Below are positions 1 to 18,667 of a DNA stretch of 64,000 bases, piece after piece. Under the pieces are notes generated by a model. The model saw only the letters and a program-made list of their open reading frames with translations, had not been told where the DNA came from and searched no databases. The first letter of the stretch is position 1. Each line of letters starts with the position of its first letter. Origin of the DNA: Rhizobiaceae bacterium (GTDB lineage Bacteria > Pseudomonadota > Alphaproteobacteria > Rhizobiales > Rhizobiaceae); NCBI GenBank assembly GCA_965248715.1, contig CBDFKB010000006.1:87871-151870 (forward strand). The letters are read 5' to 3'. Both the position numbers and the translations under genes were made by a program.

Positions 1-1135
1 CAACCTTGCTGCCATACCAAGCCAGCATGTTGTCACCTTTGCGAGGCGAGAAAAATGCGCTTACCGAATTCTGCGGCAATTGGCCAACCGGGCGCGGCGT
101 GTGCTGCATGTTGAATGTCTTTAGCGGCGCACGAAGCGTGTCGTCAGCAATCATTTGCCAGAATTCTAGATATTTTCGGGCGATCTGTTCGTCGCGGATG
201 ATGTGGCCGACATTCGATTGGCCAAGAAAGCCAGACGCGGTGATGTTGGTCGATCCAGTCCACACCTCGATCGGCCGGTCGCGGTCCATCAAAATGATGA
301 ATTTGTTGTGGGGAATGGCGATATGACGGGTGCGATCATGAAATCTCAGCCGCTCCCTGCCGACAAATGGCGCGATCACCGCCTTGTTGCGCTTGCCTTG
401 ATCCGAGGCTGCAAGTTGGTCGTTCCTGGCTGCGCGATGTCCGGCTTCATAGCAAATTTGCACGTCGGCGCCGTTTTGCGCCGCCTTCGCCAATGCGTCT
501 AATATCGGGGTGTAGGTTAATTCGTAAAAGTTACATCGCAGGGAAAACCGGTGATCCTTGGCCTGGCCGATGAACGCCAGTGCGCCTTCCAGAAGGCCGC
601 GCGAAAGCCATTTCGTCTGTTCGTTGTCAGGATCGCTGAGTTGTGCGGTGCGTGCGGCCTGGTCTAGTTCCAAATCACCAAATCGGTCGGCGAACGCTTG
701 GCTGACGATCGCGCCCCGGTTAAACAGGATCGAATGCTTGCCACTGTCTTCGGCTTCAGTGCGGATCGATACATTCAGATCATTGCCAGGGACCAGATTG
801 GCCGGATTGCCATTTGGCGGGAAGAACATTGGTCGAATGGTGTAGTGAAATTCGCGGTCAGGATCGGCTGTATAATGCCCCCACAGAAAGGTCTGGACCG
901 GATGCTTGAAGGTGGAACGGCGTTCTCCAGGATGAGGATCGGGTACAACATCTTCAAAAAATTTAAAGCCGCGCAGCCAGCGGATTTCGCCTGGTTGGAC
1001 GCTTTGCCTGGTGCCGATGGCAAATCCAGCAAAGCGCTCAAGCGCGGTTTCACGGCAGTTCATTGCCAGCAACACTGCCCTGGTGCCGGAAATAGCGTGA
1101 ACCGAAAACCCGCTTTTTCTTGCCTCTGCGCGCAT
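1..1135 (-). CDS. phospholipase D-like (HKD motif) protein; 5' end complete, 3' end runs off the window start
   Basis: Not in the supplied ORF track because it has no stop inside the window. Reverse-strand ATG at 1135-1133 is preceded by GGAGGC, and the frame stays open to position 1. My translation MRAEARKSGFSVHAISG...HNKFIILMDRDRPIEVWTGSTNIT carries the HxK(x4)D(x6)GSxN phospholipase-D signature. Confidence 0.7.
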   Translation of the reverse strand, partial: MRAEARKSGFSVHAISGTRAVLLAMNCRETALERFAGFAIGTRQSVQPGEIRWLRGFKFFEDVVPDPHPGERRSTFKHPVQTFLWGHYTADPDREFHYTIRPMFFPPNGNPANLVPGNDLNVSIRTEAEDSGKHSILFNRGAIVSQAFADRFGDLELDQAARTAQLSDPDNEQTKWLSRGLLEGALAFIGQAKDHRFSLRCNFYELTYTPILDALAKAAQNGADVQICYEAGHRAARNDQLAASDQGKRNKAVIAPFVGRERLRFHDRTRHIAIPHNKFIILMDRDRPIEVWTGSTNITASGFLGQSNVGHIIRDEQIARKYLEFWQMIADDTLRAPLKTFNMQHTPRPVGQLPQNSVSAFFSPRKGDNMLAWYGSKV

Positions 1136-1398: not shown

Positions 1399-3054
1399 AT
1401 GGCACGGCAATTCATCTATTTCATGCAAGGGCTTTCCAAGACCTATCAGGGCGGCAAGAAGGTGCTCGACAATGTGCACCTGTCATTTTACCCGGACGCC
1501 AAGATCGGTGTGCTGGGACCGAACGGCGCCGGCAAGTCGACCTTGTTGAAAATCATGGCCGGGCTGGAAGGCGAATATACCGGCGAGGCGTGGGCGGCCG
1601 AGGGCGCCAAGGTCGGTTATCTGTCCCAGGAACCGAAATTAAACGAGGCGCTGAGCGTCAAAGATAATGTCATGCTCGGGGTGGCGCAAAAACAGGCGGT
1701 GCTGGAGCGCTACAACGAACTGATGATGAACTACTCCGACGAGACCGCGGCCGAAGCGTCTGAGTTGCAGGATCGAATTGACGCCGAGGATTTATGGGAT
1801 CTGGATTCCAAGATAGAAATGGCGATGGAGGCGCTCCGGTGCCCACCCGGCGAGGCCGAGGTCGGGCAGCTTTCCGGCGGCGAGCGGCGGCGGGTAGCGC
1901 TTTGCCAGTTGCTGTTGTCGGAACCGGATCTGTTATTGCTCGACGAGCCGACCAACCATCTCGACGCCGAGACCGTGGCCTGGCTGGAAAAACATTTGCG
2001 CGAGTTCAAAGGTGCGGTGCTGATTGTCACCCACGATCGCTATTTTCTCGACAATGTTACCGGCTGGATCCTCGAACTCGACCGGGGGCGCGGCATTCCT
2101 TACGAGGGCAATTATTCCGCTTACCTTGGCCAAAAGGCCAAGCGCTTGCACCAAGAAGGGCGCGAGGATGCAGCCCGCCAGCGCGCGCTTTCGCGTGAGC
2201 GCGAATGGATTGCCGCCAGCCCGCGCGCGCGCCAGGCAAAATCAAAGGCGCGCATCAAGGCCTATGACGAGTTGCTGAAAACCAATGAGGCGCGCAAACC
2301 CGGTGAAGCCCAGATTATTGTACCGCCCGGCCGCCGCCTCGGCCAAACCGTGATTGATGCCGAAGGACTTTGCAAAGGGTTTGGCGACCGGCTGTTGATC
2401 GACAACCTGTCGTTCAAATTGCCCGCCGGCGGCATTGTCGGTGTCATTGGACCAAACGGCGCCGGCAAGACCACCTTGTTTCGCATGATTACCGGCCAGG
2501 AACAGCCCGACAGCGGGGAAATTCAGCTCGGTGACACGGTTGATCTTGGCTATGTGGACCAAAGCCGTGACACTCTGGACGGCGCCAAGACGGTTTGGCA
2601 GGAGATTTCTGGCGGCAGCGATGTCATCAAACTTGGCAAGCACGAGATGAATTCGCGCGCCTATGTCGGCGCGTTCAATTTTCGCAAGGGCGACCAGCAG
2701 CAAAAGGTCGGCACCCTTTCCGGTGGCCAGCGCAACCGGGTGCACCTGGCCAAGATGCTGAAATCCGGTGCCAATGTATTGCTGCTCGATGAACCGACCA
2801 ATGACCTAGATACCGAGACCCTTGGCGCGCTCGAAGACGCGCTGGAGGAATTCGCCGGTTGCGTGGTGATCATCAGCCATGACCGGATGTTTCTAGACCG
2901 GCTCGCGACCCACATTTTGGCGTTCGAGGGTGACAGCCATGTGGAATGGTTCGAGGGCAATTTCGAAGATTACGAGGAAGATAAAAAGCGCCGCCTTGGC
3001 GCCAACGCAGTGCTGCCGAAACGGATCCAGTATAAGCCGTTTACCCGAAGATAG
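1399..3054 (+). CDS. ettA: ABC-F ATPase, energy-dependent translational throttle protein EttA
   Basis: 551 aa with two ABC cassettes (GPNGAGKST twice; LSGGERRRVAL and LSGGQRNRVHL signatures). N-terminus MARQFIYFMQGLSKTY and the length are typical of EttA/YjjK. Confidence 0.95.
   Translation: MARQFIYFMQGLSKTYQGGKKVLDNVHLSFYPDAKIGVLGPNGAGKSTLLKIMAGLEGEYTGEAWAAEGAKVGYLSQEPKLNEALSVKDNVMLGVAQKQAVLERYNELMMNYSDETAAEASELQDRIDAEDLWDLDSKIEMAMEALRCPPGEAEVGQLSGGERRRVALCQLLLSEPDLLLLDEPTNHLDAETVAWLEKHLREFKGAVLIVTHDRYFLDNVTGWILELDRGRGIPYEGNYSAYLGQKAKRLHQEGREDAARQRALSREREWIAASPRARQAKSKARIKAYDELLKTNEARKPGEAQIIVPPGRRLGQTVIDAEGLCKGFGDRLLIDNLSFKLPAGGIVGVIGPNGAGKTTLFRMITGQEQPDSGEIQLGDTVDLGYVDQSRDTLDGAKTVWQEISGGSDVIKLGKHEMNSRAYVGAFNFRKGDQQQKVGTLSGGQRNRVHLAKMLKSGANVLLLDEPTNDLDTETLGALEDALEEFAGCVVIISHDRMFLDRLATHILAFEGDSHVEWFEGNFEDYEEDKKRRLGANAVLPKRIQYKPFTRR
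2951..3054 (+). repeat. direct repeat copy 1: the 3' end of ettA in current use (last 34 codons plus stop)
   Basis: 104 bp, 92/104 identical to 4567-4670 in the same orientation by my base-by-base comparison. Confidence 0.9.
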
Positions 3055-3063
3055 TAGGGAACA

Positions 3064-3837
3064 ATGTTCAAAAAATTACAAGATTGCGGTTTTGATGTTC
3101 TTTCGCTCCATCATGCGGAAGCAATTGTAAAAATTGATTTTCCTGAAGCGCTTATTGAACTTGAAACCGTACTCCAAAACCTCGAATTGCCCATAGTAGA
3201 GATTGTCAGCGGCGGCGGAGGTGAATCAAAGCTAACCCAGCGATTGAGACGCAATCTTGTTGAACATGGATGGCAGAAACGAAACATAGAGGTGCATAAG
3301 ACCGTTCGCTGGGGCGCTGACCAACCAGAGATAGCCGTTGCGGCAATTTCCCACGAAATTGATCATGTTAATGCATTCGGCCCAAATGCGAATGTTTTTG
3401 CTCTGGAAATTGAGTGGAACAATAAGGACCCGTTTTTTGACCGCGATCTGGAAAACTTCAAACGATTGCACGCGGAAGGTGCAATTTCGGTCGGCGGCAT
3501 AATTACCCGTGGCGAATCGCTTCATGCCAATATGCGATCCCTAGTTGCACGGTTCGCCGACGACAACGAAATAGAAGACTTTGTTACCTTGGGCCAATTT
3601 GGGTACTCACCTACCGGTCGGCAAAGAAGCAATATTTTCTCACGTGCGGAAAAACTCGGTGATTTTAGGCAAGCATGGGTTGAGTGGTTTGTTTCTGACA
3701 AGTTTGGCGAAGCAACCACACATTGGCAGAAATTGCATGACCGCGTTCTACGCGGAGTAGGAAACCCATGCCCGCTTGTCCTAATAGGAATTCCAGACAG
3801 CGTTGTCAGTTTCGACTATTCGGTGGCCGAATTATAG
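3064..3837 (+). CDS. type II restriction endonuclease, BglII/BstYI(BamHI)-like fold
   Basis: 257 aa. IDHVNAFGPNANVFALEIEWNN fits the D-x(n)-E-x-E catalytic arrangement of BamHI/BglII-type enzymes. GW..R motif and C-terminal PLVLIG resemble BstYI as I recall it. Convergent with, and overlapping by 22 bp, a DNA methyltransferase gene. Confidence 0.7.
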   Translation: MFKKLQDCGFDVLSLHHAEAIVKIDFPEALIELETVLQNLELPIVEIVSGGGGESKLTQRLRRNLVEHGWQKRNIEVHKTVRWGADQPEIAVAAISHEIDHVNAFGPNANVFALEIEWNNKDPFFDRDLENFKRLHAEGAISVGGIITRGESLHANMRSLVARFADDNEIEDFVTLGQFGYSPTGRQRSNIFSRAEKLGDFRQAWVEWFVSDKFGEATTHWQKLHDRVLRGVGNPCPLVLIGIPDSVVSFDYSVAEL

Positions 3838-4481
3838 GCGTAGGTATTCCAATTTGGACGGTAGTTTTCGTCGGCTTCATCGCCCCAATAGGTCCAACCG
3901 GGTCTGGTGCCGCGTGCGAACAATTCGAGGTAAGGCCCGGGAGAACAATCTTCGATCAGATCATACTGTTCGTCTGGTTTGCGAGAATGCTCGCGCTTGC
4001 GCGACTGAATCATGTTGACCTGGCTTCGACCGGGCGCAAGCGTGCGAGCATTTTTACCCCGGACACCAAACAGTAGAATTTCAGTCACATTTCGAAAATA
4101 AAATCCAACTCCACGTCCATCTGAGCCACCATCCTTGCGGATCTTGTGCCAGACGATATTCGATTTATACTCGAATCCCCATGCCTTAATGACTTTCAGC
4201 CCTTCAGGGAGCAAAGCATTGGGTACCCACAAATAAAGGTGCGACGGGTTTGCAACCAGCGCATTTACTGGCAACTCGCAAATTTCTTCGGTGCTCAACG
4301 TTTGATAACGAGACAATCGTTTGTGCTCGGGAGCAATCTTTCCTGTCCTATTGGTAAATCTCCAAGGTGGATCGGCTAATATAGTATGAAACGCTTCATC
4401 ACCGGCGGCGTCAAGAAGCTCGAATGCTGTATCGAACATCTCGGTAACCATTTCATTCTCCGTATCAGCCGCAAGGAACAA
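3816..4481 (-). CDS. MT-A70 family DNA methyltransferase (DPPW motif)
   Basis: 221 aa with ILADPPWRF catalytic motif IV, characteristic of MT-A70/N6-adenine (or N4-C) methyltransferases. Paired with the endonuclease gene. Confidence 0.85.
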   Translation of the reverse strand: MFLAADTENEMVTEMFDTAFELLDAAGDEAFHTILADPPWRFTNRTGKIAPEHKRLSRYQTLSTEEICELPVNALVANPSHLYLWVPNALLPEGLKVIKAWGFEYKSNIVWHKIRKDGGSDGRGVGFYFRNVTEILLFGVRGKNARTLAPGRSQVNMIQSRKREHSRKPDEQYDLIEDCSPGPYLELFARGTRPGWTYWGDEADENYRPNWNTYAYNSATE

Positions 4482-4566
4482 AAACAGAACAAATATCGAT
4501 TGTCAATTGCCTAATCCACGCGGGATTGAGATATTCATCACCTCTTATTGCTGATTCGTAAATGCC

Positions 4567-4670
4567 TCGAGGGCAATTTCGAAGACTATAAGGAAGATAA
4601 AAAGCGTCGCCTTGGTGCCGACGCGGTGCTGCCAAAACCGATCCGGTATAAGCCGTTTACGAGAAGATAG
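4567..4670 (+). repeat. direct repeat copy 2: displaced, non-functional copy of the ettA 3' end
   Basis: Would encode LEGNFEDYKEDKKRRLGADAVLPKPIRYKPFTRR*, versus FEGNFEDYEEDKKRRLGANAVLPKRIQYKPFTRR* in ettA. 12 mismatches in 104 bp. Confidence 0.9.
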
Positions 4671-5487
4671 TGGGGAACACGAGGTCCAGGATACTGTTCA
4701 CGATAAATCTCACATAGTCTAGCCAGCCCAGCTCGGTCTCAGGAATTGGTTCCGGCTTTGGCAGCAATTGCGGACAAGGCTCGGTGGTTGCCAGCACCGC
4801 GCGGTAATCGCCGCGTTCGAACGCATCATCGACAAAGCGGCGGCGCTCGGGCGATAACGCTTGGCCCATGTCAGGCGGAAAATGCTGGGCCAGTAATTCT
4901 CGCCAACTATCTTGCGGTGGCACTAGGCGATTGAGAACCTGCTGAAGATAGTAGCGGACGTCTGGATTAAGCGCGACGACGGATTCCTCGCTTCCAAGAA
5001 TCAGTGCCTTATGGGCAGCCTGGTAGATTCCGATCGAGGCATATTCGGTCAACTCATGCGCCGCCTCGGCGATGCGAAGCTCGTTTTTGTCCAGGTTTGG
5101 CGCAATGATCCCGCAATGCAAAACCCGATCGTACTTTTTACTGAACATGCCTGACATGACGATGCGGAACAGCTTCTCAAAAAAGCAGAAACCGAGTATC
5201 CCGCTATCGCCATTGTTATGAATGATGCTGCTGCGGCGCCATCGCGCGCGCATTCCCGGTTCGTTCATGATCGGGCGAAATTTTGGATGTAGGGTTGCGT
5301 AGGCCTCGTACGTCGCGTCCAACCATTGTGGGCAGCGGCCATCATTTGTTGGCCTGAACTGGTCGTATGTTGGCTGGCGCGGGCCGGAAAAATCCCATAT
5401 CGGCGGTGCGGTTTCCTGTGCCGTAACCGCGCCTGCCACCTGCATGCAAGATGCAAATACGATGAATAAAATTGCGAATTTCCCCAT
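4657..5487 (-). CDS. secreted hypothetical protein
   Basis: 276-aa ORF with N-terminal signal-like segment MGKFAILFIVFASCMQVAGAVTA. I recognise no family. Confidence 0.55.
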   Translation of the reverse strand: MGKFAILFIVFASCMQVAGAVTAQETAPPIWDFSGPRQPTYDQFRPTNDGRCPQWLDATYEAYATLHPKFRPIMNEPGMRARWRRSSIIHNNGDSGILGFCFFEKLFRIVMSGMFSKKYDRVLHCGIIAPNLDKNELRIAEAAHELTEYASIGIYQAAHKALILGSEESVVALNPDVRYYLQQVLNRLVPPQDSWRELLAQHFPPDMGQALSPERRRFVDDAFERGDYRAVLATTEPCPQLLPKPEPIPETELGWLDYVRFIVNSILDLVFPTIFS

Positions 5488-5952: not shown

Positions 5953-7147
5953 GGAGTTTGCCCAAACCCTGTCGGTTTGAGCCATTTTGGTAGATTTTGG
6001 ACACACTTATGCTGCGTTCAGTCTTTCGTGATAGATCAGGCGACGCATGTTATAGGCGATATTGATCATGCCGATTTTGACTTTCGCACGAGCTATACCG
6101 ATGGTTCTGACAAACAGGCCCATGCGGGTTTTCTGATCGCCAAACACATGCTCGACTTTGGAACGAACGCTTGAGCGTTTTGCATTGGCTATTCTTGTCC
6201 GCTGTGGCATGGGGCGACCCTTTGGTTTCTTTTGGTGGATGCGGGATTTGAACCCATTGTTTACCAGCCATGTTTCATTCTTCTTTGAGCGATAAGCACT
6301 GTCAGCCCACACATCTGATGCCGTATTATCTTTGCTGAGAACATCACGCAAATACCGGCCGTCATAAGCAGAGGCCCCGGTGACTTCAAAGCCACGGATA
6401 AAACCAAAGCGCCGATCTGTGGCGATGTGATTTTTAAAACCAAATGCGGGAATGGCAATATCCACATGCCCGGCCTTCTTGCTGCCATCGGCGGCAGTTT
6501 TGGCCCTGGAATATTTGATCGACCAGCGCGCATCGGTGTCTTTGTGACGTGCCTTGTGGGAGTTGCCCCAAATCTCGTCAGCACTTTTGCCTTCTTTGAT
6601 CTGAGCCTTCTCTTCATCCTTCAATCGCTGTTTGGGAGCAGGTACAATTGTGGCATCCGCGATCTGGCCACCCATTGCCAAATAGCCCTTTTCAGTAATC
6701 ATCGCGTCACATTTTTGGAACAAGGTATCAATCGCATCGGCCCGGGTCAGAAGATCGCGGTAGAGCCATATGGTGCGTGCGTCCGGCATCCGCTGGCCAG
6801 GTTCAAACCCCAAAAACCGCATGAACGACAGCCGATCATTGATCAGGAATTCAAGACGCTCATCAGACAAATCATTCATCGCCTGTATGACCAGTATTTT
6901 GAACATCGTGACAACGTCATAGGGTGGACGACCATCACTGCGATGCAAAGCCATGATCAAATCCGGTCGAAAGACCTCAAAGTCAACGACCGTATCCAAA
7001 GTTTCCAGTTGATCACCCAAATCACTCAGGCGTTTCAGTTGATTGTCTATTCCAAATAAATTCTTTTGAGCCATACGCCCAGTGAATCATAGAACAGGTG
7101 ATTTGCATAGGTACTTAGAAGGGTCCAGCTGGACACCCGCAAAAACC
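5953..7147 (-). mobile_element. IS5-family insertion sequence (IS5 group); left boundary ambiguous (5919 or 5953)
   Basis: Single 355-aa DDE transposase. The end at 7147 reads GGTTTTTGCGGGTGTCC on the reverse complement. Candidate partner ends are GGAGTTTGCCCAAACCC at 5953 or GGTTTTTGGAATTATCG at 5919. 5953-7147 is 1195 bp, which is the size of IS5. TTAG follows the right end, but no matching duplication occurs on the left. Confidence 0.65.
6007..7074 (-). CDS. IS5 family transposase (DDE_Tnp_1)
   Basis: 355 aa. MAQKNLFGIDNQLKRLSDLGDQLE...DARTIWLYRDLL...ADATIVPAPKQR is typical of IS5-group transposases. Confidence 0.9.
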   Translation of the reverse strand: MAQKNLFGIDNQLKRLSDLGDQLETLDTVVDFEVFRPDLIMALHRSDGRPPYDVVTMFKILVIQAMNDLSDERLEFLINDRLSFMRFLGFEPGQRMPDARTIWLYRDLLTRADAIDTLFQKCDAMITEKGYLAMGGQIADATIVPAPKQRLKDEEKAQIKEGKSADEIWGNSHKARHKDTDARWSIKYSRAKTAADGSKKAGHVDIAIPAFGFKNHIATDRRFGFIRGFEVTGASAYDGRYLRDVLSKDNTASDVWADSAYRSKKNETWLVNNGFKSRIHQKKPKGRPMPQRTRIANAKRSSVRSKVEHVFGDQKTRMGLFVRTIGIARAKVKIGMINIAYNMRRLIYHERLNAA

Positions 7148-16239: not shown

Positions 16240-17553
16240 CTACTCCGCCGGCTCCCGCACGCTTGGATTGTTCGGATGCATGGTCCAGTTGGCGTAGTTC
16301 GGGTCGACCTTTTTACCGGTGCGTTTGTCTAGTGCGCCGGGGGCAAGCGGGTCCAAGGAGATGCAATTTTCCACCGGACAGACATTGGCGCACAAATTGC
16401 AACCGACGCATTCTTCTTCGATCACCGTAAATTTGCGTTCCCCATTGCTGTTCATCGAAATTGCCTGGTGCGAGGTATCTTCACAGGCGGCAAAACAGCG
16501 CCCGCACTGGATGCACAGTTCCTGATCGATACTGGCCTTGGCGATGTAATTGAGGTTGAGATATTGCCAGTCGCTGACGTTGGGCACCGCGCGGCCGATG
16601 AAATCGTCCAAGCTATTGTGGCCCTGCTCGTCCATCCAGTTGGAAAGCCCGTCGGTCATTTCGGTCACGATCCTGAAGCCATAGGTCATGGCGGCGGTGC
16701 AAACCTGCACATTGCCGGCACCAAGGGCCATGAATTCGGCCGCATCGCGCCAGGTGGTAACCCCGCCGATGCCGGAGATCGGCAGGCCGGCGGTTTCGGA
16801 ATCACGGGCGATATCGGCCACCATATTGAGCGCAATCGGCTTGACCGCCGGGCCGCAATAGCCGCCATGGGAACCCTTGCCGTCGATCGACGGTTCGGGC
16901 GAAAAATTATCCAGATTGACCGAGGTGATCGATGAGACCGTGTTAATCAGCGATACCGCATCAGCACCACCCGCCTTGGCGGCACGGGCCGGATAGCGGA
17001 TGTCGGTGATATTCGGTGTCAGTTTAACGATCACCGGCATACGAGTGTAGGCCTTGCACCAGCGCGCGACCATCTCGATATATTCCGGCACCTGGCCAAC
17101 CGCCGAACCCATGCCGCGCTCGCTCATGCCATGCGGGCAACCGAAATTAAGTTCGATGCCGTCGGCGCCAGTATCTTCGACCAACGGCAATATCTTTTTC
17201 CACGCCCCCTCCTCACACGGCACCATGATCGAAACTATCATTGCCCGGTCTGGCCAGTCGCGTTTGACCTGCTTGATTTCGCGTAAATTTACATGCAGAT
17301 CGCGGTCGGTGATCAGTTCGATATTGTTGAGGCCCAGCAAACGACGGTCAGCGCCCCAAACCGCGCCGTAGCGCGGGCCGTTGACATTTACTACCGGCGG
17401 ACCCTCCTCGCCAAGGGTCTTCCAAACCACACCGCCCCACCCGGCCTTAAAGGCGCGCACCACATTGTATTCTTTGTCGGTCGGCGGCGCGGACGCGAGC
17501 CAGAACGGGTTCGGCGATTTGATGCCGAGGAAGTTCGAAGCGATATTGGCCAT
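16240..17553 (-). CDS. preA: NAD-dependent dihydropyrimidine dehydrogenase subunit PreA
   Basis: 437 aa. A DHOD-like TIM barrel plus C-terminal 2x[4Fe-4S] motifs (CIQCGRCFAACED..., CVGCNLCANVCPV). Confidence 0.9.
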   Translation of the reverse strand: MANIASNFLGIKSPNPFWLASAPPTDKEYNVVRAFKAGWGGVVWKTLGEEGPPVVNVNGPRYGAVWGADRRLLGLNNIELITDRDLHVNLREIKQVKRDWPDRAMIVSIMVPCEEGAWKKILPLVEDTGADGIELNFGCPHGMSERGMGSAVGQVPEYIEMVARWCKAYTRMPVIVKLTPNITDIRYPARAAKAGGADAVSLINTVSSITSVNLDNFSPEPSIDGKGSHGGYCGPAVKPIALNMVADIARDSETAGLPISGIGGVTTWRDAAEFMALGAGNVQVCTAAMTYGFRIVTEMTDGLSNWMDEQGHNSLDDFIGRAVPNVSDWQYLNLNYIAKASIDQELCIQCGRCFAACEDTSHQAISMNSNGERKFTVIEEECVGCNLCANVCPVENCISLDPLAPGALDKRTGKKVDPNYANWTMHPNNPSVREPAE

Positions 17554-17564
17554 TTGGTCCTCCT

Positions 17565-18030
17565 ATTCCTCATCCGTCATCCTTGGGCTCCGGCCCAAGG
17601 ATCCAGTCTGATGCCTATTTCATACTCGCCACTTGGCCATCCTCAAAACGTTTGACGAAGGTCGGCTGAAACAAATTGTCATGTTCATAGCAGGTCGGGA
17701 AAAGGTCAGCCCAACCGGGATTGAAGTTCTCAATTAGGTTGAGTTTCCATTTTCTTCGATAGAGCTTCAGCGGTTTTTCCCGCTGAATTGCTGTTTCAAT
17801 ATCGTAGTGGCGCTCATACCACACAAGCGTCTTGCAGCCATACTGGCGGGTAAACCCTGGAATATCGCCCTGTTTATGTTCTTGCGCCCGGCGCCAAAGA
17901 TCAGAGGTAACGCCGATATATAGTGTCCCGTTTCGCTTTGAAGCCATAATGTAGACCCAACCCCCCATTTCAAAGCCGCCCGATTACTGGATCCTTGGGC
18001 CGGAGCCCAAGGATGACGGCCGAAATAGGT
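17565..18030 (-). mobile_element. GIY-YIG nuclease cassette 1, bounded by 34-bp hairpin-containing terminal inverted repeats
   Basis: TIRs CCGTCATCCTTGGGCTCCGGCCCAAGGATCCAGT at 17574-17607 and its exact reverse complement at 17986-18019. Each contains the ATCCTTGGGC-N4-GCCCAAGGAT hairpin. Confidence 0.7.
17615..17968 (-). CDS. GIY-YIG nuclease family protein (small stand-alone, COG2827/YhbQ-like)
   Basis: MGGWVYIMASKRNGTLYIGVTSDLWRRAQEHK...KTLVWYERH..IETAIQREKPLKLYRRKWKLNLIE contains the GIY...YIG and catalytic R/E motifs. Confidence 0.9.
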   Translation of the reverse strand: MGGWVYIMASKRNGTLYIGVTSDLWRRAQEHKQGDIPGFTRQYGCKTLVWYERHYDIETAIQREKPLKLYRRKWKLNLIENFNPGWADLFPTCYEHDNLFQPTFVKRFEDGQVASMK

Positions 18031-18111
18031 GTGGCGCGGACGCGAGCCAGAACGGGTTCGGCGATTTGATGCCGAGGAAGTTCGAAGCGATATTGGCCAT
18101 TTGGTCCTCCT

Positions 18112-18577
18112 ATTCCTCATCCGTCATCCTTGGGCTCCGGCCCAAGGATCCAGTCTGATGCCTATTTCATACTTGCCGCTTGGCCATCCTCAAAACGTTT
18201 GACGAAGGTCGGCTGAAACAAATTGTCATGTTCATAGCAGGTCGGGAAAAGGTCAGCCCAACCGGGATTGAAGTTCTCGATTAGGGTGAGTTTCCATTTT
18301 CTTCGATAGAGCTTCAGCGATTTTTCCCGCTGAATTGCTATTTCAATATCGTAGTGGCGCTCATACCACACAAGCGTCTTGCAGCCATATTGGCGGGTAA
18401 ACCCTGGAATATCGCCCTGTTGATGTTCTTGCGCCCGGCGCCAAAGATCAGAGGTAACGCCGATATATAGTGTCCCGTTTCGCTTTGAAGCCATAATGTA
18501 GACCCAGCCCCCCATTTCAAAGCCGCCCGATTAATGGATCCTTGGGCCGGAGCCCAAGGATGACGGCTGAAATAGGT
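18112..18577 (-). mobile_element. GIY-YIG nuclease cassette 2 (same architecture)
   Basis: TIRs at 18121-18154 and 18533-18566 (33/34 match). 547 bp from cassette 1. Confidence 0.7.
18162..18515 (-). CDS. GIY-YIG nuclease family protein, second copy
   Basis: 117 aa with 5 aa differences from copy 1 (K33Q, T58I, P65S, N76T, V113A) and about 9 nt differences in 354 by my count. Confidence 0.9.
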   Translation of the reverse strand: MGGWVYIMASKRNGTLYIGVTSDLWRRAQEHQQGDIPGFTRQYGCKTLVWYERHYDIEIAIQREKSLKLYRRKWKLTLIENFNPGWADLFPTCYEHDNLFQPTFVKRFEDGQAASMK

Positions 18578-18667
18578 GCGGCGCGGACGCGAGCCAGAAC
18601 GGGTTCGGCGATTTGATGCCGAGGAAGTTCGAAGCGATATTGGCCATTTGGTCCTCCTGCGTAAAAC

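Follow-up and report, generated by a model that had tools for sequence, protein, structure and literature searches.

The 3' flank of ettA in this Rhizobiaceae bacterium carries a two-gene cassette, predicted to be a Type II restriction-modification (R-M) system, between two diverged copies of the ettA tail. We see an even chance that the cassette is an intact R-M pair of an ettA-docked lineage, with the endonuclease expressed by read-through from ettA, the methyltransferase under a LexA (SOS) box, and the repeats derived from two alleles of the locus that became joined. The locus lies in a 64,000-nucleotide stretch of DNA (the window), to which all positions refer.

The ettA gene (1399 to 3054, plus strand) is intact and encodes a 551-aa energy-dependent translational throttle of the ABC-F type, which matches the EttA equivalog NF008775 (927 bits) and contains two Pfam ABC_tran domains and ABC_tran_Xtn. 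Nine bases separate its stop codon from the ATG of the endonuclease gene R (3064 to 3837, plus strand). R is intact, encodes 257 aa and matches PF09195 (Endonuc-BglII; E-value, 1.2e-19), and its protein has 6,894 full-length homologues. A Foldseek search with the AlphaFold model of R (pLDDT of 87) returned BstYI structures as the top PDB matches (1vrr, 2p0j, and 1sdo; E-values of 1e-6 to 1e-5), followed by BamHI; the best E-values were 1.2e-6 for BstYI 1vrr and 5e-3 for BamHI. In an alignment of 24 R homologues, D100, E115, and E117 are invariant and are candidate active-site acidic residues. The modelled PD-(D/E)XK fold type of BstYI, BglII, and BamHI and the conserved acidic residues place R in the BglII/BstYI family of Type IIP restriction endonucleases as a predicted member. 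An earlier note on this DNA had proposed a BglII/BstYI-like endonuclease at this position, in agreement with the PF09195 match, the full-length homologues, and the BstYI/BamHI fold.

R shares with BstYI (RGATCY), BglII (AGATCT), and BamHI (GGATCC) the Pfam BglII family, the predicted fold, and the avoidance of the four RGATCY words by the host. It differs from the solved enzymes in having no similarity to them that HMMER detects (no significant match in the PDB with either a single sequence or a profile) and a structural-alignment identity of only 10 to 16%. The methylase paired with R also sets it apart, being an N6-adenine enzyme of the MT-A70 family. Among the 4096 hexamers, AGATCT, AGATCC, GGATCT, and GGATCC rank 2, 7, 8, and 13 for under-representation, with observed-to-expected ratios of 0.47 to 0.64; the ratios of the remaining NGATCN hexamers are 0.74 to 1.32. 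Since the four RGATCY words are avoided genome-wide, a BstYI-like specificity, RGATCY, is predicted for the R-M pair. Raw counts of AGATCT, which are not composition-normalized, show no clear difference between relatives with and without the cassette.

The methyltransferase gene M (3816 to 4451, minus strand) encodes a predicted N6-adenine DNA methyltransferase of the MT-A70 (DPPW) family. PF05063 (MT-A70) matches with an E-value of 6.5e-30 over 172 of its 172 profile positions, and the translation contains ILADPPW. The closest solved relatives are MT-A70 6mA/m6A methyltransferases and METTL3. The M reading frame extends as far as a TTG at 4481 (3816 to 4481), and homologues align from the ATG at 4451, which is the more likely true start. 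R and M are convergent and their 3' ends overlap by 22 bp (3816 to 3837); the earlier note had described this arrangement with an MT-A70 (DPPW) gene, and the PF05063 match and the DPPW motif bear it out. The two are the only genes of the 1,503-bp insert (3064 to 4566), and its description as an integrase-less cassette also stands: there is no recombinase gene between the repeats and no tRNA in the whole window. The G+C content of the cassette (44 to 50%) is below that of its surroundings (55 to 61%). Pairing of R and M is kept in more than 70 of 80 loci. As adjacent genes of these two families, R and M constitute a Type II R-M pair whose cleavage and methylation activities are predicted.

No promoter-like or terminator-like site was found on the plus strand between ettA and R. 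With its start 9 nt past the ettA stop and no promoter-like site in between, R is probably transcribed by read-through, with ettA supplying the transcription of the downstream endonuclease gene. The M promoter carries a putative LexA operator, GTTCTGTTTTTGTTC (4476 to 4490, minus strand), of the form GTTC-N7-GTTC, just downstream of a TTGACA -35 hexamer (4501 to 4506, minus strand). GTTCN7GTTC is the alphaproteobacterial SOS box (PMC9578287). The genome has the same 15-mer ahead of recA and a perfect box, GAACATTAATCGAAC, at lexA, and LexA-type boxes also precede comM-like and radical-SAM genes. The bare GTTC-N7-GTTC motif occurs at chance level genome-wide (117 found versus 107 expected); a subset with a T-rich spacer (n = 15) includes the sites of recA, the comM-like gene, and the radical-SAM gene. 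All ettA-linked cassettes examined have GTTC-N7-GTTC at the same place. In four cassettes with Burkholderiales, Rhizobacter, or unclassified proteobacterium labels, boxes of the CTGT-N8-ACAG type (beta/gamma type) lie upstream of M, perfect in L126 and with one mismatch in L131, L143, and L157. With an operator as found at recA and lexA that is conserved in orthologous promoters, the M promoter is a candidate member of the LexA regulon. A full-text literature search found no LexA-controlled R-M system, and a review (PMC3874152) has none among its examples.

About 20 Hyphomicrobiales genomes, from at least six families, have a homologous cassette in the corresponding position. R starts 5 to 60 nt past the ettA stop in Oricola, Nitratireductor, Phyllobacterium, Propylenella, Bauldia, Hyphomicrobiaceae, and TARA and Logan contigs; Afifella and a few others also have ettA upstream, with an insert of 0.6 to 1.4 kb ahead of R. 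Tail duplication was found neither by sensitive blastn at 13 other ettA-linked loci nor by a repeat search at 4. Because about 20 genomes share this position and junction without a tail duplication, the cassette family appears to have resided at the ettA 3' flank for a long time, with horizontal exchange, and the ettA-R junction appears to be an inherited or exchanged linkage rather than a fresh insertion junction. The duplication, being absent from the other ettA-linked loci examined, is not the normal seating of the family, and by this sequence comparison the repeat pair is peculiar to this genome.

M proteins from all the ettA-linked cassettes group in a single clade (98/94), and the R homologue is patchily distributed (13 of 401 genomes of the order; 21 of 401 of the family). 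Horizontal exchange at the locus is supported by the R proteins of Bauldia and of a Rhizobiaceae MAG, which pair as sisters outside the R clade expected from their M proteins, the latter remaining inside the ettA-linked clade, and by a conflict between the R and M trees for locus L095. One genome (G599) retains a truncated R remnant behind ettA, a decayed cassette. Within genus g40, the cassette alternates at the site with an unrelated 162-aa gene, and the comparison reveals a substitution, not a clean insertion. Across genera, the left (ettA) junction is constant and the right junctions are variable.

At the right flank of the cassette studied here, cross-cassette homology ends near 4520. A stretch of 46 bp (4521 to 4566), without any other match in the genome, separates the conserved cassette promoter block from the second repeat copy, and the novel joint lies at 4566/4567. 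An AATG at 4561 to 4564, matching the AATG at 2945 to 2948, is a possible microhomology. Beyond the joint, a convergent open reading frame (4657 to 5487, minus strand) encodes a 276-aa protein with a signal-peptide-like N terminus and no Pfam or NCBIfam match. Only 3 homologues were found in 5.8 billion proteins, none of them close; one, a 49% paralogue from the same contig, has a C terminus of similar length. Because the last 8 codons of this gene lie inside the second repeat copy, both it and ettA are intact despite the duplication. An IS5-family transposase gene (6007 to 7074) is located 1.3 kb further right, outside the repeats, and there is also an AT-rich patch near the cassette.

The earlier note had reported a 104-bp imperfect direct repeat of the ettA end with 92 identical positions; this was confirmed, and the true repeat is longer, at 113 to 114 bp. 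In a comparison of the windows 2951 to 3064 and 4567 to 4680, 100 of 114 positions are identical; the repeat proper ends at 3063 and 4679, the last compared position being an A/C mismatch. It takes in the final 34 codons of ettA and their TAG stop, together with the 9-nt spacer (TAGGGAACA versus TGGGGAACA; 8 of 9 identical), and a genome-wide search found only these two copies in 3.65 Mb. Copy A (2951 to 3063, plus strand) is the functional ettA end and stop with the spacer that carries the R ribosome-binding site, and its right end falls exactly at the R ATG. It contains a GGATCC (RGATCY) site at 3023 to 3028 and, on the minus strand, a hairpin with a T-run (3003 to 2987). Copy B (4567 to 4679, plus strand) is a relic ettA tail whose frame is open and whose stop is retained, with no indel or premature stop despite a dS of 0.5. 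Two residues that are otherwise invariant in EttA are altered in it (E to K and R to P), the second substitution abolishing the GGATCC site. On its minus strand, a 6-bp GC hairpin (4594 to 4614) with a T-run is the likely terminator of the convergent 276-aa gene; the folding energy of the hairpins in both tails is no better than that of shuffled sequences.

As for the substitutions, several of which had been noted as nonsynonymous, 4 of the 12 coding differences between the copies are, and the other 8 are synonymous (dN/dS of 0.11; dS of 0.50). Such a bias toward synonymous changes points to divergence of the tails while each was a functional allele in a lineage of its own, although the test against a model with one neutral copy is only borderline (P of 0.03 at kappa 1 and 0.12 at kappa 6). 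Part of the divergence would be post-event decay, because copy B is altered at two invariant EttA positions. The G+C content is uninformative as to which copy is foreign, with A being G/C-richer at 6 of the 12 differences and B at 4. To search for an empty site, EttA was compared with 40 relatives, its C-terminal region was compared separately, and the 276-aa gene was queried against the 5.8 billion proteins. These searches revealed neither an empty site nor a donor allele, the closest sequences being at about 80% (whole EttA) and 88% (C-terminal region); the nearest EttA among the relatives, which include no congeneric genome, has 80% amino-acid identity. Searches with an exact or degenerate tail pattern gave no ettA tail of this type in genome contigs and 41 matches in metagenome contigs, all of them chance matches and 0 in ettA. 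Sliding 60-aa identity comparison with family-type and other sequences gave no signal of a mosaic structure in EttA.

The origin of the repeats, which we infer, is the least certain step of the proposed history. According to the earlier note, the locus is an insertion with long target duplication, a class defined by R and M lying inside an insert of <20 kb, a direct repeat of >30 bp, and, decisively, a related genome with a single-copy target (Furuta et al. 2010, PMC2853133). The first three features are all present, and to that extent the claim stands; what speaks against it is that about 20 genomes share the ettA-R junction without duplication. A free R-M unit (3064 to 4566) would have entered the overlap of ettA and the 276-aa gene and duplicated a 114-bp target, after which the copies diverged in place. 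We consider this rather unlikely and are equally doubtful of its corollary, that copy A was under purifying selection and copy B mostly neutral. Target duplication is the simplest account of a repeat that ends exactly at the R start with the 9-nt spacer included; moreover, the radical changes at invariant positions in copy B look relic-like, the duplication neatly spares two overlapping convergent genes, and the same genome has another insertion with rebuilt target copies. However, a mechanism is needed to put R beside the ettA stop, just as in the genomes without duplication, and a one-off blind insertion would need a chance re-creation of this junction. Synonymous differences are also 2 to 4 times above the prediction of the model, the lack of any indel or stop in copy B is difficult to reconcile with its dS, and the repeats are 88% identical, compared to 93 to 100% in published cases (PMC2853133). 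The parallel that had been drawn to the 81-bp repeats of the Ssn/GIY-YIG cassette proved weak, as those copies are 99 to 100% identical. R-M units with long target duplication (Nobusato et al. 2000; Furuta, Abe & Kobayashi 2010, PMC2853133) do resemble the cassette in being small Type II pairs without a recombinase gene, in their flanking direct repeats of tens to hundreds of bp copied from the host, and in a G+C content lower than the surroundings. They differ in that the repeats here are synonymous-biased as well as more diverged, and in that the same site is occupied in many genera without duplication, which the published model did not foresee.

A purely intragenomic origin, in which ettA tail and cassette were tandemly duplicated and the second cassette was then deleted to leave a stray tail, strikes us as very improbable. 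Direct repeats around R-M units can drive amplification (PMC2853133), and the IS5 element and AT-rich patch are nearby, but two events are needed, one with its end point exactly at the R start codon, and the genome holds no trace of a second cassette copy. Neither the synonymous bias nor the natural read of the 276-aa gene C terminus through copy B would be explained. Scarcely credible is a homing-like spread, whereby R cuts RGATCY at the end of ettA in cells without the cassette, which is then copied in during repair from a cassette-bearing template. The GGATCC site present in copy A and lost from copy B would fit, yet the enzyme would cut hundreds of other sites too, and this route was rejected for want of enrichment: RGATCY occurs in the last 150 nt of ettA in 7 of 20 cassette-bearing and 10 of 28 cassette-free genomes. 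The mostly synonymous differences are mildly in favor of a recombinational joining of two diverged ettA alleles rather than of duplication in situ.

In this preferred history of joined alleles, a single homologous exchange inside ettA and a single illegitimate joint at 4566/4567 would have fused two alleles of the locus, one with and one without the R-M pair, that stemmed from two reasonably closely related lineages. Tail A of one allele would have been left in ettA, and tail B of the other would have stayed with the convergent 276-aa gene; both genes would be intact because the 3' end of the latter overlaps the tail kept beside it. A possible route is homology-facilitated illegitimate recombination, reportedly described by de Vries and Wackernagel in 2002, or single-crossover entry of a circularised fragment. 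The former resembles the proposed event in combining one conserved anchor (ettA) with one non-homologous joint, and would therefore yield constant left and variable right junctions across genera. Such recombination usually deletes recipient DNA beyond the anchor, whereas the joint here would lie upstream of the anchor's end, giving a duplication instead of a deletion. The repeats would permit RecA-mediated precise loss of the cassette.

The regulatory layout suggests how the pair might operate. M would be transcribed convergently from its own promoter, with the putative LexA operator in the -35/-10 interval, and basal M would protect RGATCY sites. Were methylation to lag, R would nick or cut the chromosome, and LexA cleavage would lead to more M and to antisense transcription into R, so that damage itself would restrain self-restriction. 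In a newly entered, naive cell, M would come first, immediate and SOS-boosted, and R only once joined to a complete, transcribed ettA. As in known R-M control circuits (C proteins, methylase autorepression, and antisense RNAs), a toxic partner must be delayed or limited, and the convergent layout of R and M, overlapping at the 3' ends, leaves room for antisense interference; unlike in those circuits, the toxic partner borrows the transcription of a housekeeping gene. The putative LexA operator overlaps the promoter, as in symE, one of the LexA-repressed toxin genes along with tisB (PMC3874152), but in this R-M pair the gene that carries it is the antidote, the methylase. The change from GTTC-N7-GTTC in Alphaproteobacteria to CTGT-N8-ACAG in Burkholderiales-labelled cassettes would be an operator swap, with the circuit apparently kept through host changes.

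Taken further, and with somewhat less than even confidence, we propose an SOS-wired R-M module in which a promoterless R depends on ettA transcription, M is held by LexA, the operator type is swapped by host, and homology-assisted recombination at the ettA anchor carries the module from genus to genus with no recombinase, the repeats being the one visible entry scar. If so, self-restriction or damage from DNA entry would raise methylation and antisense transcription against R, and an SOS-repressed methylase with a housekeeping-fed endonuclease would be a simple added solution for establishment and for avoiding self-restriction. The RGATCY prediction, with its clear genome-wide avoidance, is checkable in any methylome. 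The fixed docking at ettA in many genera is a concrete case of recombinase-less defence genes returning to one site, for which conserved-flank anchoring and vertical retention with loss are the leading candidates, and the diverged repeat pair may represent an intermediate of one such return that has, unusually, been preserved.

The gene ettA (1399 to 3054, plus strand; NF008775, 927 bits) is followed by a restriction-modification (R-M) cassette enclosed by two direct repeats of the ettA tail. Copy A (2951 to 3063) consists of the last 34 ettA codons, the TAG stop, and the next 9 bases, and copy B (4567 to 4679) repeats it in the same orientation. The copies are identical at 100 of 114 positions (2951 to 3064 versus 4567 to 4680), or 92 of 104 in the coding part, and these are the only two in the whole 3.65-Mb genome. 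Only two open reading frames (ORFs) lie between them, with a 22-bp overlap of their 3' ends: an endonuclease gene (R; 3064 to 3837, plus strand; PF09195 Endonuc-BglII, E 1.2e-19) and a convergent, DPPW-containing methyltransferase gene (M; 3816 to 4481, minus strand; PF05063 MT-A70, E 6.5e-30). The Pfam matches, the repeat alignment, and this overlap confirm an earlier note that described an R-M pair between ettA-tail direct repeats. The repeat itself exceeds the length claimed there by 10 bp and runs right up to the R start codon. The statement that no integrase, transposase, or tRNA is associated also holds, as the 64-kb window has no tRNA and no recombinase gene is present between the copies; an IS5-family transposase gene lies 1.3 kb to the right of the repeats. 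The cassette has a G+C content of 44 to 50%, versus 55 to 61% in its flanks. Upstream of and divergent from ettA is a gene for a PLD-like (PF13091) protein (2 to 1135, minus strand), which extends past the window edge.

R has 6,894 homologues, with a top identity of 74%, and no similarity to solved structures was found by HMMER. In a PDB fold search, its AlphaFold model (24 homologues, pLDDT of 87) matched BstYI best (1vrr, E 1.2e-6), followed by BamHI; D100, E115, and E117 are invariant across the family alignment. Among proteins of known structure, M is closest to MT-A70 6mA methyltransferases and METTL3. Under a maximal-order Markov model of this genome, AGATCT, AGATCC, GGATCT, and GGATCC rank 2, 7, 8, and 13 among 4096 hexamers for under-representation (observed/expected ratio, 0.47 to 0.64; 0.74 to 1.32 for the remaining twelve NGATCN words). 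From family membership, fold, and this depletion, we predict a BstYI-like RGATCY specificity with adenine methylation. AGATCT counts compared across genomes were raw and un-normalised, and are uninformative.

An R homologue was found in 13 of 401 genomes sampled from the order and in 21 of 401 sampled from the family, the latter spread over 19 of 135 genera. About ten of the 21 family genomes carry it downstream of ettA (ettA-linked). Among the closest R homologues, ettA ends 8 to 17 nt before R in an Oricola chromosome and in TARA and Logan contigs. A scan of species-representative genomes added cases in which R starts 5 to 60 nt past the ettA stop, including Phyllobacterium pellucidum, two Nitratireductor genomes, Propylenella binzhouense, and metagenome-assembled genomes (MAGs) of a Hyphomicrobiaceae bacterium and of Bauldia. 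In Afifella pfennigii and a few others, 0.6 to 1.4 kb of additional genes intervene. One of these family genomes, G599 (locus L192, 1501 to 1746), retains only the first 82 R codons after ettA and no M, the remnant of a cassette that decayed in place. The ettA 3' flank behaves as an insertion hot spot. The intervening genes, judged by eye, are an RHH antitoxin-like 81-aa ORF and a 259-aa methyltransferase-like ORF in L095 (2100 to 3403), a membrane-protein-like ORF in L098 (2919 to 3488), and a 395-aa ORF in L117 (2296 to 3483). A second ettA tail is absent from all other ettA-linked loci compared; in each, the ettA tail resembles those of its own lineage, and the short spacers between ettA and R show no conservation.

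The ettA-linked M proteins form a single clade (support, 98/94), and the R and M trees match the EttA tree in part. In contrast, Bauldia (Kaistiaceae) and a Rhizobiaceae MAG have R proteins that pair as sisters in another R clade, although their M proteins belong to the ettA-linked M clade. L110 (the Bauldia MAG), L117/L182, L180, and L183 all pair an M of this clade with an R just 53 to 56% identical to that of the window; the R proteins of L110 and L117, those placed in the tree, fall in a different clade from the window's R. R has thus been swapped at one and the same locus across families. Placement of L095 also differs between the R and M trees, and the window's R and M cluster with Oricola and Nitratireductor cassettes, whereas its EttA falls outside the EttA clade of these genera. 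In one surveyed genus (g40), a cassette-free genome has an unrelated 162-aa gene at the cassette position, a substitution whose left break lies precisely at the ettA stop. Taken together, the agreement and conflicts among trees and the g40 substitution show a history of long residence, loss, and horizontal exchange, with the left junction always at the ettA end. In the most economical reading, ettA would serve as the homologous anchor for cassette exchange.

The 12 coding differences between copies A and B comprise 8 synonymous and 4 nonsynonymous changes (dS 0.50, dN 0.054, dN/dS 0.11). So many synonymous changes have a probability of 0.001 to 0.009 if both copies drifted freely. This silent surplus suggests that the copies had largely diverged before they were joined, as alleles of two lineages, one cassette-bearing and one cassette-free. 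We give such a two-allele origin about an even chance. The present structure would follow from a single homologous exchange within ettA together with illegitimate joining at 4566|4567, where an AATG microhomology lying 2 nt from the joint may have helped; both ettA and the convergent gene for a 276-aa protein would stay intact. The last 8 codons of the latter lie inside copy B, and the C-terminus of its paralogue is similar in length. What argues against two alleles is that the repeat takes in the 9-nt spacer up to the very start of R, an extent most simply explained by a genuine duplication of the target, with the copies diverging in place. Such an in situ duplication, in which one copy drifted and the other stayed under selection, gives the observed synonymous excess a probability of 0.03 to 0.12, depending on the transition bias assumed, and we regard it as rather unlikely; other routes take up the remainder.

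Polarization of the replacements against 119 EttA homologues showed that copy B departs from two otherwise invariant residues, with K for E and, in the PKR[IV] motif, P for R, so copy B has decayed somewhat as a relic. The R-to-P change also abolishes a GGATCC site found in copy A, which has one derived change, D to N. No close relative was found in any collection searched. Whichever origin applies, the repeats would offer a route for precise RecA-mediated cassette loss. Each copy also has a minus-strand hairpin followed by a T-run, with folding energies no better than those of shuffled sequences; copy A could terminate the M transcript and copy B that of the 276-aa gene. The 276-aa protein (4657 to 5487, minus strand) has a signal-peptide-like start, conserved cysteines, and a hydrophobic C-terminal tail, and only three homologues among 5.8 billion proteins, one being the paralogue (49%) on the same contig. 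Elsewhere in the window, Ssn-type nuclease cassettes (17484 to 18658) are associated with three 81-bp target copies that are 99 to 100% identical (88% for the ettA-tail pair); that event is either far more recent than the one at ettA or differs from it in kind.

The earlier reading, insertion with long target duplication (Furuta et al. 2010, PMC2853133), is partly supported in form, with an R-M unit between direct repeats, but is incomplete in substance. R-M units that lack a recombinase and lie between long direct repeats are already known; new are the fixed docking behind ettA across families, the apparently promoterless R, and the predicted LexA control of M.

No promoter-like or terminator-like site is present between ettA and R, and R is probably transcribed by read-through from ettA. 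When the sequences upstream of M were aligned for 15 linked cassettes, they shared a conserved block in the order GANTC, TTGACA, and GTTC-N7-GTTC, the last about 20 nt ahead of the Shine-Dalgarno sequence and ATG of M. This last motif is the alphaproteobacterial SOS box, as in Caulobacter (PMC9578287). Several observations support the box at M as a genuine LexA operator. The candidate LexA box of M (4476 to 4490), GTTCTGTTTTTGTTC, is letter-for-letter the same as the box upstream of recA in this genome, where lexA has one perfect box and another with one mismatch, and where a comM-like gene and a radical-SAM gene have upstream boxes as well. All ettA-linked cassettes examined have the box at this position, as do several unlinked cassettes from Alphaproteobacteria. 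Four cassettes labeled Burkholderiales, Rhizobacter, or unclassified proteobacterium have a CTGT-N8-ACAG-type box at the corresponding place (CTGTATACATATACAG in L126; CTGT-N8-CCAG in L131, L143, and L157), whereas three other beta-type cassettes (L124, L165, and L171) have none or only a partial one. That the operator type partly switches with the host label is an argument for LexA control of M as a selected trait. No LexA-controlled system is listed in a review of how R-M systems are regulated (PMC3874152), nor was one found in the full-text literature searched, an absence bound to that scope rather than proof of novelty.

Two further words accompany these promoters. GANTC is the CcrM methylation site of Alphaproteobacteria, and GAATC or GATTC lies about 8 nt upstream of the M -35 hexamer in most ettA-linked cassettes (seen in the aligned promoters of L036, L093 to L099, L033, L041, L042, and L117); the window has GGATTAG at this position (about 4510 to 4516). 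Its conservation may reflect cell-cycle or methylation-dependent control. AGATCC, an RGATCY word, lies within or adjoining the beta/gamma-type LexA-like boxes of L131, L143, L157, and L126, and the operator may in this way be linked to methylation by the system itself; no RGATCY word is present at the M box in the window. Finally, GTTC-N7-GTTC boxes with T-rich spacers lie ahead of four other genes on contigs C4, C5, and C7 of this genome (C7:619270, C5:250472, C7:798131, and C4:121720), namely, a 326-aa ORF without a Pfam match (possibly imuA-like), the radical-SAM gene, the comM-like Mg-chelatase gene, and, judged by eye, a DUF2235-like ORF. Together they begin to outline the SOS regulon of the organism.
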